A stretch of DNA of 52,937 nucleotides from Bacteroidales bacterium (lineage in GTDB: Bacteria; Bacteroidota; Bacteroidia; Bacteroidales; UBA7960). Of the stretch, positions 34,085 to 39,517 are shown piece by piece (the first letter of the stretch is position 1; every line of letters starts with the position of its first letter). The notes under the pieces were generated by a model, which saw nothing but the letters and a program-made list of their open reading frames with translations, ran no database searches and was not told the DNA's origin. Made by a program: the position numbers and the translations under genes. The stretch lies in contig JAWOCF010000228.1 of assembly GCA_046483935.1 (NCBI GenBank), positions 1 through 52,937 of the forward strand. The letters run 5' to 3'.

Positions 34085-34114
34085 TGTATAACTACTTTTG
34101 ATTTTTCAGGAGCG

Positions 34115-34122
34115 CAAAATTA
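34115..34122 (-). promoter_or_regulatory. -7 box for rpmG
   Basis: caaaatta is TAATTTTG on the minus strand, 30 nt upstream of the rpmG ATG. Confidence 0.65.
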
Positions 34123-34376
34123 CAGATTATTATTCATTCTCCCAAAGAAAATGCAATAAAAACCAAAAAACTTATTGCCCTTCCCCTGCCCCAGGTTCTT
34201 TGGGAGTCAAAAAAAAGAGTAACCCCTCTGCACCGGCTTGTTTGGAGCAAATTTACAACAATTTGCCTTGCTATTTGCAACATTTTGATTACCTTAGCAG
34301 AACAAACTCAATACCCGGAATTCTCCCCTTACCAAGGGATTATTCCGGTAATTTTTTTAACCCTAACACAAAGATT

Positions 34377-34874
34377 ATGAGTCAAGCCAAAGTTATTTCT
34401 TTAACTTATGAGTTGCGGGCAGGAGATGCTCAAGGGGAGTTGATTGAAACTTCCAATAAAGAAAACCCTGCAGAATTTTTATTCGGAACAGGGAATCTGA
34501 TAGAGGATTTCGAACGCAATGTGAAGGACCTGCAACCGGGTGATTCATTTGAATTTTCTATCAAGTCAGAAAATGCTTATGGACCCAGGAATCCTGAGGC
34601 TGTTGTTGAATTGCCCAAAGACGCTTTCATGGTTGAAGGTGAGTTGGCTGAAGACCTTTTGGTGGAAGGCAAGATTGTACCCATGCGCGATCAGGAGGGC
34701 AATCCCCTGAACGGAAAAGTGGTTGAAGTAGCCGACCAGACTGTGAAAATGGACTTTAACCATCCTTTGGCAGATATGGACCTTCATTTTAAAGGGGAGG
34801 TACTCTCCTCACGTGATGCCACGGAAGAAGAAACCGCTCACGGGCATGCACATACCGGACAAGGCGGTCATTAA
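34377..34874 (+). CDS. slyD: FKBP-type peptidyl-prolyl isomerase (SlyD-like, short His-rich tail)
   Basis: VISLTYEL, AYG, DFNHPLA, EEETAHGHAH; probable start ATG 34377. Confidence 0.9.
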   Translation: MSQAKVISLTYELRAGDAQGELIETSNKENPAEFLFGTGNLIEDFERNVKDLQPGDSFEFSIKSENAYGPRNPEAVVELPKDAFMVEGELAEDLLVEGKIVPMRDQEGNPLNGKVVEVADQTVKMDFNHPLADMDLHFKGEVLSSRDATEEETAHGHAHTGQGGH

Positions 34875-34900: not shown

Positions 34901-34978
34901 AGGCAGGCTGTGTTAAAAAGGAGCCGGAAAGAGATTCTCTCCGGGGTAAACACTTTTTAAGGCAGCCTGCCTTTTTTT
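34901..34978 (+). terminator. Long hairpin/terminator after slyD
   Basis: AGGCAGGCTG..TTAAAAAG ... CTTTTTAA..CAGCCTGCCT followed by a T tract. Confidence 0.75.
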
Positions 34979-35093
34979 ATTGCCCTGGTTGAAAGATGCG
35001 CAACAGTCCTTACACCAGGATGGCCACATTCCGGAGGGTTTTTGCGAATACTTGATTACCATCTATATGAGGTTTACATATGTCAAATAAAAA

Positions 35094-35125
35094 TTTGCAG
35101 TTATAGAAAAGACAAGTTACATTTG
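35094..35125 (+). promoter_or_regulatory. Bacteroidota -33/-7 promoter of the aromatic amino-acid operon
   Basis: TTTG (35094-35097), 20-nt spacer, TACATTTG (35118-35125). Confidence 0.75.
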
Positions 35126-35143
35126 ACATCAAATCAGTTCGAC

Positions 35144-35203
35144 ATGACAACCGCGAATAATCATTTCTTCTTCTATTATTATTACTTAAACGATTTTAGG
35201 TAG
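35144..35203 (+). CDS. Phe/Tyr attenuation leader peptide MTTANNHFFFYYYYLNDFR
   Basis: ATG 35144 to TAG 35203; run TTC TTC TTC TAT TAT TAT TAC; lies between the promoter and a terminator upstream of the aromatic genes. Confidence 0.88.
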   Translation: MTTANNHFFFYYYYLNDFR

Positions 35204-35242
35204 AGGAGGATATATTCGTATATTTTATAATATAAATGAACC

Positions 35243-35268
35243 AAGCCCCTCTCAGGAGGGGCTTTTTT
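35243..35268 (+). terminator. Attenuator terminator (3:4 stem)
   Basis: AAGCCCCTC-tcag-GAGGGGCTT-TTTT ending 13 nt before the aminotransferase ATG. Confidence 0.88.
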
Positions 35269-35281
35269 ATTTTACAGACCT

Positions 35282-36445
35282 ATGGTACAGGCAGCAAACA
35301 GGACACAAAAAATTGGCGAATACTATTTTTCAACCAGGATGAACCAGATCCGGGAGATGATCTCGGAGGGTATGGATATTATTAATCTGGGCATCGGCAA
35401 CCCAGATATTTCTCCTCCTGTTGAAATCATTGAAGAACTGACCTGCAGCATTATCGGCCCAGGTGCTCATGGTTACCAGCCATACAGAGGCACTCTGGAA
35501 CTGAGAAACGCTATCTCAGACTGGTACTTGAAATATTTTAATGTCAAGGCCGATCCCGGCAAACAAATTCTGCCTCTTTTAGGTTCCAAGGAAGGCATCA
35601 TGCATATTAGCATGGCTTTTCTTAACCAAGGCGATGCAGTGCTGCTGCCCGATCCCGGATATCCGGCATATGCTTCAGCAGCGCAGCTATGTGATGCCCG
35701 ATGTGTTTATTATAACCTGAATGCTGAAAATAACTGGCTGCCAGACATTGAAGGCCTGAAGAAAAAAGATCTCCAGGGGGTGAAGCTCATGTGGATTAAT
35801 TATCCAAACATGCCATCCGGAAGAAAAGCTGCCAAAGAAGATCTGCTTGCCCTAACAGACTTTGCCCGTAAGTACAATATTCTCATCATCAATGATAATC
35901 CTTATAGTTTTATCCTTAATAACACGCCGCTGAGCATTCTAAATGCTGACAATACATTTGAAAATGTTCTTGAGCTAAACTCTTTGAGCAAGTCACACAA
36001 CATGGCCGGATGCAGAATTGGCATGGTGATCGGGCACGAACAGCACATCAATGATATCCTGAAGGTGAAAAGCAATATGGATTCAGGAATGTTCTTGCCT
36101 TTGCAAATGGCTGCTGTGAAAGCATTAAGCCTCGGACAGGACTGGTACGACCAGTTGAATGCCACATACAGCATACGACAGAAAATAGTTTATGAATTAT
36201 TACAGCACCTGGGTTGCTCAACGGACCAGGGACAGTCAGGGATGTTCCTGTGGTCAGAAATACCGGCTTCATTTGCCGACTCATACGAGTTCTCAGAACA
36301 TTGCCTGAACAGCTATCACCTCTTTGTAGTCCCTGGCCTTGTGTTTGGATCCAGAGGGCAACGATATATCAGGACATCATTATCAATGAATGAGTTGCGA
36401 TTAAAAGAAGCTGTTAACCGGGTAAAAACAAACAATCATGACTGA
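35282..36445 (+). CDS. PLP-dependent aminotransferase class I/II (probably aromatic/prephenate)
   Basis: INLGIGNPD, GSKEG, PDPGYPAY, NYPNMP, NDNPY, SLSKSHNMAGCRIG; operon context. Confidence 0.9.
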   Translation: MVQAANRTQKIGEYYFSTRMNQIREMISEGMDIINLGIGNPDISPPVEIIEELTCSIIGPGAHGYQPYRGTLELRNAISDWYLKYFNVKADPGKQILPLLGSKEGIMHISMAFLNQGDAVLLPDPGYPAYASAAQLCDARCVYYNLNAENNWLPDIEGLKKKDLQGVKLMWINYPNMPSGRKAAKEDLLALTDFARKYNILIINDNPYSFILNNTPLSILNADNTFENVLELNSLSKSHNMAGCRIGMVIGHEQHINDILKVKSNMDSGMFLPLQMAAVKALSLGQDWYDQLNATYSIRQKIVYELLQHLGCSTDQGQSGMFLWSEIPASFADSYEFSEHCLNSYHLFVVPGLVFGSRGQRYIRTSLSMNELRLKEAVNRVKTNNHD

Positions 36446-37517
36446 CAAACTAAATCTGGAAGCCAACGGCCTGTTTGGCAAGGATAATAAGCCACTGCTG
36501 ATCTCAGGCCCTTGCAGCGCAGAATCAGAAAATCAGGTGATGGATACAGCCCTCAAGCTGGCAGACATTGGGATAAAGATTTTCAGGGCAGGCCTGTGGA
36601 AACCCCGCACCAGGCCCGATAACTTTGAAGGGATAGGATCGGCAGGCCTTCCCTGGCTCAGGAAGGTCAAAGCCGAAACAGGCATGCTGACTGCCGTGGA
36701 GGTAGCCAATGTATGGCATATCAAAGAAGCACTGAACCATGGTATCGACATCCTCTGGATAGGAGCACGAACAACAGCCAATCCCTTTGCTGTGCAGGAA
36801 ATTGCCGACGGCCTGCGGGGACTGGATATCCCGGTATTTATCAAGAATCCGGTCAATCCGGATCTCGAACTCTGGATCGGGGCCTTTGAGCGCCTGAACA
36901 AGGCGGGCATCAAAAAGCTTGCGGCCGTGCACCGGGGCTTTAGCTATTATGGCAAGTCGCCTTACCGTAACATTCCTCAATGGGAAATACCGATTGAACT
37001 GAAAAGAAGAATACCCAACCTGCCCATCATAACTGACCCAAGCCATATTTGCGGAAATCGTGAACTCCTTTTTTCGGTATCGCAAACAGCCATGGATCTG
37101 GATTTTGATGGCCTGTTCATCGAATCGCACCACAAGCCCGAAGAGGCCCTGAGTGATAAAAACCAGCAAATTACTCCCAAGGCGTTAGAAAACCTGCTTT
37201 CCGCTCTGATATACCGGCAGGCGGAGGTTGACAATACACGGCAGCTGGAAGGATTGCAGGAGTTCAGGCGGCAGATCGATCAGTGGGATGCTGAGCTGAT
37301 CAGGGTACTGGGAAACAGAATGTTGATTTCAGAGATGATCGGTAAATATAAAAAGAAGGAGAATATTACCATATTGCAAGCCGCACGATGGTCAGAGATT
37401 CTTGCCGACAGGCTGAAAACTGCCAGGGTGCATAACCTAAGCGATCAGTTTATTACCCAAATATTCAAGCAAATACATCAGGAATCCATCGCTTTTCAAA
37501 ACAAAGTGATGAATTAA
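36438..37517 (+). CDS. Bifunctional DAHP synthase (type I-beta) / chorismate mutase
   Basis: GPCSAES, RAGLWKPRTRP, WIGAR, DPSH; C-terminal AroQ domain RRQIDQWD..LI..LGNRM. Confidence 0.92.
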   Translation: MTDKLNLEANGLFGKDNKPLLISGPCSAESENQVMDTALKLADIGIKIFRAGLWKPRTRPDNFEGIGSAGLPWLRKVKAETGMLTAVEVANVWHIKEALNHGIDILWIGARTTANPFAVQEIADGLRGLDIPVFIKNPVNPDLELWIGAFERLNKAGIKKLAAVHRGFSYYGKSPYRNIPQWEIPIELKRRIPNLPIITDPSHICGNRELLFSVSQTAMDLDFDGLFIESHHKPEEALSDKNQQITPKALENLLSALIYRQAEVDNTRQLEGLQEFRRQIDQWDAELIRVLGNRMLISEMIGKYKKKENITILQAARWSEILADRLKTARVHNLSDQFITQIFKQIHQESIAFQNKVMN

Positions 37518-37578: not shown

Positions 37579-38367
37579 ATGAAAAGGATACTAATAGCGG
37601 GAGCAGGCAATATGGGGTCATGGCTGGCAGAAACGCTCTGCCTGGATTATGAGGTGGCAGTTTACGACAAAGATCCCCATAAATTGAAATACCTGTACAA
37701 CACACACAGGTACAAAGACATAGAGGATGTGGCCGCATTTCAACCACAGTTGCTTATCAATGCCACCGGCCTGAAACAAACCATTGATGCATTCAATCAG
37801 CTGCTGCCTCATTTGCCGGGCGACTGTATTATTTCAGATGTGGCATCTGTAAAGAACGGACTTGCGGATTATTATCCGCAATGCGGATTCAGGTATGTGT
37901 CAACACACCCGATGTTCGGTCCTACTTTCGGTAATCTAAAAGAGCTGCAAGGTCATAATGCAATAATTATCAGCAGCTCCGACCCCGAAGGCAAAGCGTT
38001 CTACCATAACTTCTTCACCCGGCTGGGTCTGAAGATATACGAATACGATTTTGCAGAACATGACAGAACAATTGCTTATTCCCTGTCAATCCCCTTTAGT
38101 TCAACCATCGTGTTCTCCTCCTGTATGAAAAAACTGGAAGTGCCGGGAACAACTTTCAAAAAACACTTATCGATAGCAAAAGGCCTGCTTTCTGAAGATG
38201 ACTGGTTACTTAGCGGAATCCTCTTAAACAGATATTCCGTTGAAAAGCTTTATGAAATCAACCAACGGTTGAATGAGTTGATCAGTATGCTGGAAAACGG
38301 CAATGAAGAAGGACTTCATCAGTTATTCAATAAGCTGAGAAACAATCTTGGGTTGGTCGAAGATTAA
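37579..38367 (+). CDS. tyrA: Prephenate dehydrogenase
   Basis: GAGNMG Rossmann motif, DVASVK, THPMFGP, EHD. Confidence 0.9.
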   Translation: MKRILIAGAGNMGSWLAETLCLDYEVAVYDKDPHKLKYLYNTHRYKDIEDVAAFQPQLLINATGLKQTIDAFNQLLPHLPGDCIISDVASVKNGLADYYPQCGFRYVSTHPMFGPTFGNLKELQGHNAIIISSSDPEGKAFYHNFFTRLGLKIYEYDFAEHDRTIAYSLSIPFSSTIVFSSCMKKLEVPGTTFKKHLSIAKGLLSEDDWLLSGILLNRYSVEKLYEINQRLNELISMLENGNEEGLHQLFNKLRNNLGLVED

Positions 38368-39371
38368 AAAACAGCCCATTCATCCGGAAGGTCCATTTCA
38401 AAAGCTGCATCATAAGAGATAAAAGCCGGTAAGCCTTTCACAGTGTTATGTGAAAGATCGGGGATCTTAAGGGCTGCCTCTTCAGGGGCCTGTTGCCGGA
38501 GTCTTTCCAGCAGCTTGCTGAATGCCTGCATGGTATCAGTCTGGTTTTCCGGGGAGACATCAGCCTCAGCAGATAATTTACCCGGCAGCAAATATCCGGT
38601 TCCCTGCTGATTGAATGACACGGCACAGAGATCCATGGAGGCTGCCCAGTGAATGATGCCCAGCAGGTTATGAACCGAAAGCACCTGGTTGTCCAGGAAG
38701 TAGAACAGGCCGCTTAGCCCCTTTCCATACATCCGGTAATGAGAAAAGTCAATAAGAAAAAGCAGTATGGGAACCCGGTTCAGCTTCAGGGGGCCTGCGC
38801 CGGCCATTTGTTTTATCATCTGCAGCAGCACCTCCTGGCGGGGAACCACAAAACCATTGTGCACCCCCACAGGCAGCCCCGACAAGAGATTTTGCCCCAC
38901 CTGGTATTCCATTCCTACCCGTTGGCCTTTCAGCTCCAGAATGCGGGCCATCAGCTTTTTGCGTTCCCGCTCTTTAAGCACCCCGTTGGCCTGCATCAGG
39001 GTGATCATATTGTCAGGAATCTTACACAACTGTATCAGCCTGGCGTTTGAGATACTGGGCACCTCACCAATTTCGTAGTGCCGGTAAACATTTACCCCAA
39101 AACCCAGCACTTCAGCCATCTTTACAGCCGACAACCCATAGCTTTTACGGATCATTGCTATTTCGTCGCTATAAGGAATATTGTGCTGTTCCCGGTACTT
39201 GTTATGCAACTGCACCTGGTTGATGTTTTCCAGGTCTTCAGTAGAAAACTGGCCACCGCTTTGCTGGCAGAAATAAAAGTGCTGGTAGATGCTGAAAGTT
39301 TCTTTCCGGTATTCAACAGGCACTTTCTGACGAACCAGTGGCATGACCTTGCCAGTGAGGGGGCTTTTCAT
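38364..39371 (-). CDS. MqsA-like antitoxin: zinc-ribbon-like N-terminus, XRE HTH, divergent DUF4065/SocA (Panacea)-like C-terminus
   Basis: MKSPLTGK..., YRKE....HFYFC, IRKSYGLSAVKMAEVLGFGVNVYRHYEIGEVPS, LLFLIDFSHYRMYGKGLSGLFY. Confidence 0.75.
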   Translation of the reverse strand: MKSPLTGKVMPLVRQKVPVEYRKETFSIYQHFYFCQQSGGQFSTEDLENINQVQLHNKYREQHNIPYSDEIAMIRKSYGLSAVKMAEVLGFGVNVYRHYEIGEVPSISNARLIQLCKIPDNMITLMQANGVLKERERKKLMARILELKGQRVGMEYQVGQNLLSGLPVGVHNGFVVPRQEVLLQMIKQMAGAGPLKLNRVPILLFLIDFSHYRMYGKGLSGLFYFLDNQVLSVHNLLGIIHWAASMDLCAVSFNQQGTGYLLPGKLSAEADVSPENQTDTMQAFSKLLERLRQQAPEEAALKIPDLSHNTVKGLPAFISYDAAFEMDLPDEWAVF

Positions 39372-39517
39372 AATCTCAGGCAATTATAGTTACAAATCAT
39401 GATAAGTTTAATAAATTTGCCTTCAGGGCACACCTGTGGAAGCAAACTGATTAAATAGTTCGATAAAAATACTATTTATCTGCTAATCCTAAACTTTAAA
39501 GTTAAAAAAGAAGATTC

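Follow-up and report, generated by a model that had tools for sequence, protein, structure and literature searches.

We consider it likely that a ribosome-mediated (leader-peptide) transcription attenuator controls an aromatic amino acid operon for an aminotransferase, a bifunctional DAHP synthase/chorismate mutase (DAHPS/CM) and a TyrA-like protein in a Bacteroidales bacterium. Its leader carries three consecutive Phe codons and then four consecutive Tyr codons upstream of an intrinsic terminator. The element lies in a window of 52,937 nt (the whole stretch of DNA that was analysed), and the same attenuator design is kept across more than 150 related loci of differing sequence.

The locus contains every element that the original prediction had named, namely a promoter, a leader ORF, a terminator and segments with alternative pairings, and each lies where it had been placed (all coordinates refer to the forward strand). 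A -33-like TTTG element (35094..35097) stands 20 nt 5' of a -7 box with the pattern TAnnTTTG (TACATTTG, 35118..35125), motifs that we take to be the Bacteroidota promoter consensus. The leader ORF (MTTANNHFFFYYYYLNDFR, 19 codons plus UAG, 35144..35203) opens with an ATG at 35144, 18 nt after the -7 box, and its seven consecutive regulatory codons (35165..35185) comprise three TTC codons for Phe (35165-35173) and four Tyr codons in the order TAT TAT TAT TAC (35174-35185). Segment 1, the anti-antiterminator strand seen in the unconstrained minimum free energy (MFE) fold, lies within these codons (35166..35175); segment 2 (35201..35210), formed by the UAG stop and AGGAGGA, has two alternative partners in the predicted folds, namely segment 1 and the terminator 5' arm. 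Segments 3 and 4 form the terminator hairpin (35245..35262), which has a 7-bp G+C-rich stem of -14.3 kcal/mol and a UCAG loop, is also listed by a consensus terminator scan, and continues into a U-run (T6-A-T4, 35263..35273) 59 nt after the leader stop. The upstream FKBP-type isomerase gene (34098-34874, Pfam) has a terminator-like hairpin of its own in the terminator scan (34959..34973), so the hairpin at 35245 is not the FKBP terminator; given this hairpin and the promoter motif after it, the leader presumably has its own promoter. Runs of at least seven F/Y residues occur only four times in the six-frame translation of the 2.5-Mb assembly, and only the run in the window combines an ATG, a terminator and a downstream aromatic operon; the remaining runs were rejected as leaders on account of their non-leader contexts. 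Searching the same genome for other leader-peptide attenuators (runs of W, H, L, ILV, T, M or C plus a terminator) returned matches only in coding regions or gene ends.

The first structural gene encodes a class I/II aminotransferase (35282..36445; Pfam PF00155, E = 3.9e-57), its ATG at 35282 standing 19 nt from the terminator. The DAHPS/CM gene (36438..37517; Pfam PF00793 and PF01817) overlaps it by 8 nt, and the gene for a short, divergent prephenate-dehydrogenase-like (TyrA-like) protein (37579..38367; Pfam PDH_N, 36 bits, cut-off 26.5) starts 61 nt further on. Together they make up a three-gene operon, and the next gene is convergent. All three operon proteins score below NCBIfam cut-offs, the best prephenate dehydrogenase model giving the TyrA-like protein 73 bits against a cut-off of 310. 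The convergent gene (38364-39383, reverse strand) encodes a 339-residue protein whose N-terminus resembles the zinc-ribbon/HTH region of MqsA antitoxins (31 bits in Pfam; 59.6 bits with TIGR03830, slightly below the cut-off of that model) and whose further ~200 residues have no known family.

Prephenate dehydratase (PDT, PF00800) gave no match in the window's assembly, which is 79.5% complete, and was not found in the relatives G005 (91% complete) and G039 (96%), both of which keep aminotransferase, TyrA and DAHPS/CM operons; since it is missing from two fairly complete relatives, its absence from the window's genome may be real. Such an absence suggests Phe auxotrophy or an alternative route to phenylpyruvate as possibilities. 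With no PDT in the operon, the Phe codons would report on an amino acid whose dedicated enzyme the operon does not encode, a point against the attenuator reading, and one may speculate that their retention would be sensible if phenylpyruvate were made elsewhere and the aminotransferase completed Phe synthesis. The genome holds a second DAHPS/CM gene (G000:C267:4-966, reverse strand; 56% identical), which has family-typical synteny and no leader. The copy in the window is closest (65%) to genomes from other families of the order. For the window operon, horizontal acquisition is possible, as is mis-binning of its contig (contamination 3.65%).

Folding of the leader transcript reproduced both of the alternative pairings. 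Segments 1 and 2 had been said to pair fully with the help of G-U pairs, and they do so over all 10 positions (eight Watson-Crick and two G-U pairs); this 10-bp helix and the terminator are both present in the unconstrained fold of 35130-35285, which reaches -37.4 kcal/mol (z = -4.2; 0/200 shuffles equally stable). The proposed alternative, pairing of segment 2 with the terminator 5' arm, was recovered when the Phe/Tyr codons were masked: the MFE fold then contains an antiterminator in which 35202-35209 pairs with 35246-35252 (7 bp, one bulge). The 1:2 anti-antiterminator and 2:3 antiterminator pairings are predicted to be mutually exclusive in the window.

For the masked folds, the transcript was ended just before the terminator 3' arm and the ribosome was represented by keeping an assumed footprint (-15 to +13 nt relative to the A-site) single-stranded. 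The probability that the terminator 5' arm is paired upstream was 0.07 without a ribosome; placing the A-site on codons 4-15 gave 0.80-0.86, codons 16-19 gave 0.04-0.39 and the stop gave 0.16. On any of the seven Phe/Tyr codons (Phe8-Tyr14) the antiterminator probability was 0.85-0.86. In this model the antiterminator forms only with a ribosome on codons 4-15, suggesting that a stall on the regulatory codons would expose segment 2 and that a ribosome at the stop would cover it. The antiterminator duplex of the window (-8.0 kcal/mol versus -14.3 kcal/mol for the terminator) is the weakest among the 16 leaders compared below, with 8/200 shuffles equally good, and it could work only if its competition with the terminator is kinetic.

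These features suggest the following sequence of events. Transcription would begin within a few bases downstream of the -7 box, with a ribosome translating the 19-codon leader close behind the polymerase. With Phe-tRNA and Tyr-tRNA plentiful, the ribosome would reach the UAG and cover segment 2, allowing the terminator at 35245-35262 to form; with no ribosome loaded, segment 1 would pair with segment 2 and the terminator would again form. Either way, transcription would end at the U-run. Were either charged tRNA scarce, the ribosome would stall on one of the seven Phe/Tyr codons, masking segment 1 and leaving segment 2 free to capture the emerging terminator 5' arm, so that the polymerase would read into the operon. 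The outcome would be an OR gate for Phe and Tyr. We infer leader translation, ribosome–polymerase coupling and the response to each amino acid; Bacteroidota initiate without Shine-Dalgarno pairing, and transcription–translation coupling is assumed for them.

The original prediction had proposed looking for F/Y-rich mini-ORFs upstream of orthologous operons. Using the DAHPS/CM protein as query, we screened 40 genomes from the family and order of the window and annotated the upstream DNA. Gene orders comprised PDT-DAHPS/CM, PDT-AT-PDH-DAHPS/CM, and operons with the aminotransferase (AT) or prephenate dehydrogenase (PDH) first. An F/Y-rich ATG mini-ORF stands just 5' of the first gene in 12 of the 13 relatives in which DAHPS/CM belongs to a multi-gene aromatic operon with an identifiable start, the lone exception (L034) having only 254 nt before its contig end. 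The other loci scanned 5' of DAHPS/CM (n = 27, some cut by contig ends) gave three weak matches (at least 4 in 7), none of them leader-like, and no F/Y leader was found upstream of the stand-alone prephenate dehydratase genes L231 (G015), L232 (G021) and L233 (G007), which lie away from the operon in three genomes of the same family. The leader thus seems, from this distribution, to stay with the multi-gene operon and not with stand-alone prephenate dehydratase. Three relatives' genomes carry two leaders in series; such tandem F/Y leaders, each followed by a terminator, recur across several lineages and occur at L055 (G015), L063 (G007) and L067 (G005) and at about 11 of 71 loci in the named genomes described below.

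Because these relatives' leaders diverge too far for a dependable MAFFT alignment, duplexes and folds were tested sequence by sequence. A hairpin and U-run follow all 16 leaders (the window and 15 others), and the stems begin 94-120 nt from the AUG. Co-variation links the terminator 5' arm to the segment around the leader stop, which lies between that arm and the F/Y run: the duplex of segment 2 with this arm has a mean energy of -12.3 kcal/mol in own-species pairs and -8.6 kcal/mol in cross-species pairs, the own duplex being the better one in 15/16 leaders (Wilcoxon p = 6e-5, for leaders that are kin and not independent), which adds comparative weight to the alternative pairing proposed for the window. 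Moreover, in 15/16 leaders at most 10/200 shuffles gave an equally good duplex. In the masked folds of all 16, the 5' arm was paired upstream with a mean probability of 0.56 without a ribosome, 0.86 for a stall within the F/Y run and 0.40 for a ribosome on the stop codon, and the stalled state exceeded the stop state in 14/16 leaders; the masked-fold model shows no switch in L039, L067b, L154, L155 and L162.

We also scanned named species genomes with a prephenate dehydratase alignment, which yielded 80 loci, 75 of them with enough upstream sequence. Most are Bacteroidales metagenome-assembled genomes, alongside Paludibacter, Dysgonomonas, Microbacter, Lentimicrobiaceae, Salinivirgaceae and Saprospiraceae, and cultured members include Breznakibacter xylanolyticus DSM 6779 and Saccharicrinis sp. 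FJH62. Defined as an ATG mini-ORF with at least five F/Y/W in seven residues no more than 450 nt upstream, a leader was found 5' of prephenate dehydratase at 71/75 loci and was absent from 4/75, with control rates of 0.9-2.7% in the same scan (23/2664 other windows; 2/75 reverse complements). A hairpin and U-run come after 80/83 leaders of the 71 loci, and 57/84 leaders have a TAnnTTTG box in the 120 nt preceding them, compared with 139/1680 random windows (8%), the distance from box end to leader ATG usually being 18-23 nt. Of 65 tracts with at least five T[TA][TC] repeats, 62 lie within a short ATG-ORF that reads them in the Phe/Tyr frame, compared with 1 and 5 for the two alternative frames and with 5/34 control tracts, indicating that the tract is read as Phe/Tyr codons. 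Outside the F/Y run the peptide shows no conservation among homologous leaders. The window, with 7/7 F/Y, fits the traits of this class, which are an ATG mini-ORF of about 12-33 codons and a U-run mostly 40-86 nt after the stop. On these comparisons, whose statistics span related genomes and so overstate independence, the leader class seems to be near-universal for aromatic operons in Bacteroidota. Neither in the window nor in any of 12 homologous loci did an Rfam family reach its gathering score; sub-threshold matches (STnc100, Phe_leader, Ysr49) mostly align to the terminator hairpin and were set aside.

The closest counterparts of the window came from a metagenome scan with the aminotransferase, the nearest loci being L151 (65% identity) and L152 (60%). 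Both have the aminotransferase first and homologous leaders with the same N-terminal pattern as the window, both share with it a UAG stop followed directly by (A)GGAGG, and their terminators are of the GCCCCUC type. The predicted switch (no ribosome/stalled/stop) is 0.01/0.75/0.01 for L151 and 0.11/0.83/0.09 for L152. At L152:1700-1990 two leaders stand in series before the aminotransferase-first operon, each with a terminator and a matching segment 2; one has six Tyr and one Phe, and the other has seven consecutive Tyr and no Phe. A hairpin and U-run were present in 10/10 further leaders analysed in detail. Nine metagenome loci and four relatives combine a leader with the same PDT-less layout, and the window operon, which has the aminotransferase and not prephenate dehydratase as its first gene, represents a sub-type of the Bacteroidota F/Y leader class. 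Metagenomic DNA contigs from four public runs, compared over 34950-35700, are single contigs from unknown strains and offer hints only: a 97%-like contig has lost exactly one Phe codon (3 nt in frame at 35165), replacements of His7 by Tyr (35162 C>T) and of Phe10 by Tyr (35172 T>A) appear in more distant pieces, and a terminator variant combines 35244 A>G with a compensating C inserted after 35261, so that the stem stays paired.

The balance of Phe and Tyr codons in the leaders differs with operon content. Leaders before PDT-first operons (127 distinct) have a mean Tyr share of 0.39, with Tyr outnumbering Phe in 13 and YYYY in one, whereas in the 18 leaders of PDT-less operons this share averages 0.58, with Tyr outnumbering Phe in 10 and YYYY in six (Mann-Whitney p = 1.8e-4, on a small effective sample, since about two lineages account for the strongly Tyr-rich leaders). 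Mixed leaders precede other PDT-less operons, namely those of L154, L155, L162 and g8, a genus of the same family. PDT-less operons serve the tyrosine branch together with the common entry step. We propose tentatively, giving it somewhat less than an even chance, that leader codon make-up is tuned to operon products, such that loss of PDT brings a shift towards Tyr, with the window (FFF then YYYY) intermediate, and that the class includes the first Tyr-sensing leader-peptide attenuators; our literature search found no leader reported to respond to Tyr.

Joint sensing of Phe-tRNA and Tyr-tRNA by the window leader is suggested by its codons, and a genuine leader-peptide attenuator that in practice senses one amino acid only, either Phe or Tyr, seems unlikely. 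Such a leader could tolerate the other codons because TTY and TAY are one base apart and either preserves the pyrimidine-rich strand needed for pairing with segment 2; consistent with this, F and Y interchange freely among homologous leaders and segment 1 requires merely a U/C-rich sequence. A precedent exists in Corynebacterium glutamicum aroR, which responds to Phe and not to Tyr according to a review (PMC11802643). Against this reading, 81/84 leaders keep at least two Phe and at least two Tyr codons, and leader operons usually encode the enzymes of both branches along with DAHPS/CM. The Tyr share, moreover, rises from 0.39 to 0.58 and the frequency of YYYY from 1/127 to 6/18 where prephenate dehydratase is missing, one relative has a leader with seven Tyr and no Phe, and the masked folds respond alike to a stall on any of the seven codons. 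We thus favour a leader that would sense both amino acids.

Departing further from the attenuator reading, the short ORF could act otherwise than through terminator read-through, by way of Rho access, aminotransferase translation, or a leader RNA or peptide working in trans. The aminotransferase ATG does lie just 19 nt past the U-run, and trans-acting attenuator RNAs and peptides are reported from Sinorhizobium; the canonical G+C-rich hairpin and U-run in 16/16, 10/10 and 80/83 leaders, co-variation specific to segment 2 and the terminator 5' arm, and a peptide unconserved beyond the F/Y run nevertheless make these modes improbable. Even smaller is the chance that the mini-ORF arises by accident in a T-rich, low-complexity tract and that the hairpin serves as an insulator or terminates the upstream gene. 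Repeats of TTC and TAT do count as low-complexity DNA and the genome's other F/Y runs occur in non-leader contexts, but the FKBP gene has its own hairpin at 34959-34973 with a promoter motif after it, the ATG, frame and stop are conserved, control scans found leaders at rates of 0.9-2.7% only, and the comparative data already contradict this view. A leader-peptide attenuator acting on terminator read-through remains our preferred explanation.

The window offers a clean, analysable example of a class that is apparently the rule for aromatic operons in Bacteroidota and is missing from Rfam, and its interest may lie less in the window itself than in the near-universality of the class and the tracking of operon content by leader codons. 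Through its Phe-rich, mixed and Tyr-only variants, found singly or in tandem and with or without prephenate dehydratase, the class supplies natural variation for studying how leader codons evolve relative to operon content. It also bears on whether attenuation works in Bacteroidota, where translation starts without Shine-Dalgarno pairing. In annotation work, mini-ORFs with premature terminators may explain long 5' regions and short transcripts before pheA and tyrA.

Single leaders that read several amino acids are well known from the E. coli thr (Thr and Ile codons) and ilvGMEDA (Leu, Val and Ile) attenuators, which resemble the window in this respect and differ from it in amino acids, operons and sequences. 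The C. glutamicum aroR-aroF leader, reportedly described by Neshat et al. in 2014, is nearer in content. In the review's account it shares with the window a mixed Phe/Tyr leader before a DAHP synthase operon, whereas it belongs to another phylum and has one Phe-Tyr-Phe triplet, compared with four consecutive Tyr in the window and up to seven in relatives (PMC11802643). The trp/pheA/his-type logic that had been proposed for the window is supported by comparison and by its masked folds: E. coli pheL-pheA (RF01859), as presented in a survey (PMC3082878), likewise has tandem codons, 1:2, 2:3 and 3:4 pairings and an intrinsic terminator, but its leader has Phe codons only, and the window differs from it also in promoter type and in having no Shine-Dalgarno sequence. 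The RF01859 Phe_leader model gives the window 34.2 bits against a gathering score of 55, and the window is not a member of that family.

Within Bacteroidota, Vitreschak et al. in 2004 may, reportedly, already list attenuators. Our search of the literature for a described Bacteroides Phe/Tyr leader gave only general remarks and one supplement on Flavobacterium psychrophilum. The B. thetaiotaomicron transcriptome paper mentions some long 5' UTRs with sORFs reminiscent of leader peptides (PMC7366714), and Naville and Gautheret (2010) do not mention Bacteroidetes (PMC2965389). The closest described case is the F. psychrophilum pheA-aspC3 leader-peptide attenuation element THC0290_N_0195 (Guerin et al. 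2021, supplement file 8), which precedes pheA as a conserved 5' element and matches no Rfam family (PMC9723704). As given in that entry, it resembles the window in phylum, in its short F/Y(/W)-rich ORF, in a terminator hairpin with a U-run, in a TAnnTTTG promoter about 20 nt upstream and in preceding an aromatic operon with an aminotransferase (PMC9723704). It differs in that prephenate dehydratase comes first, with the entry labelled for phenylalanine biosynthesis and control only, whereas the window operon has no prephenate dehydratase, and in that its F/Y residues alternate and include Trp, whereas those of the window form two blocks, FFF then YYYY (PMC9723704). The original prediction, which held that little experimental work existed on such leaders in Bacteroidota, thus overrated their novelty, given this listed pheA element and the textbook status of multi-amino-acid leaders. 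Measured against these systems, the window element is not new in kind but a conventional attenuator of a type common in its phylum, and the new detail, drawn from sequence comparison, is that operons without prephenate dehydratase tend to have Tyr-enriched leaders.
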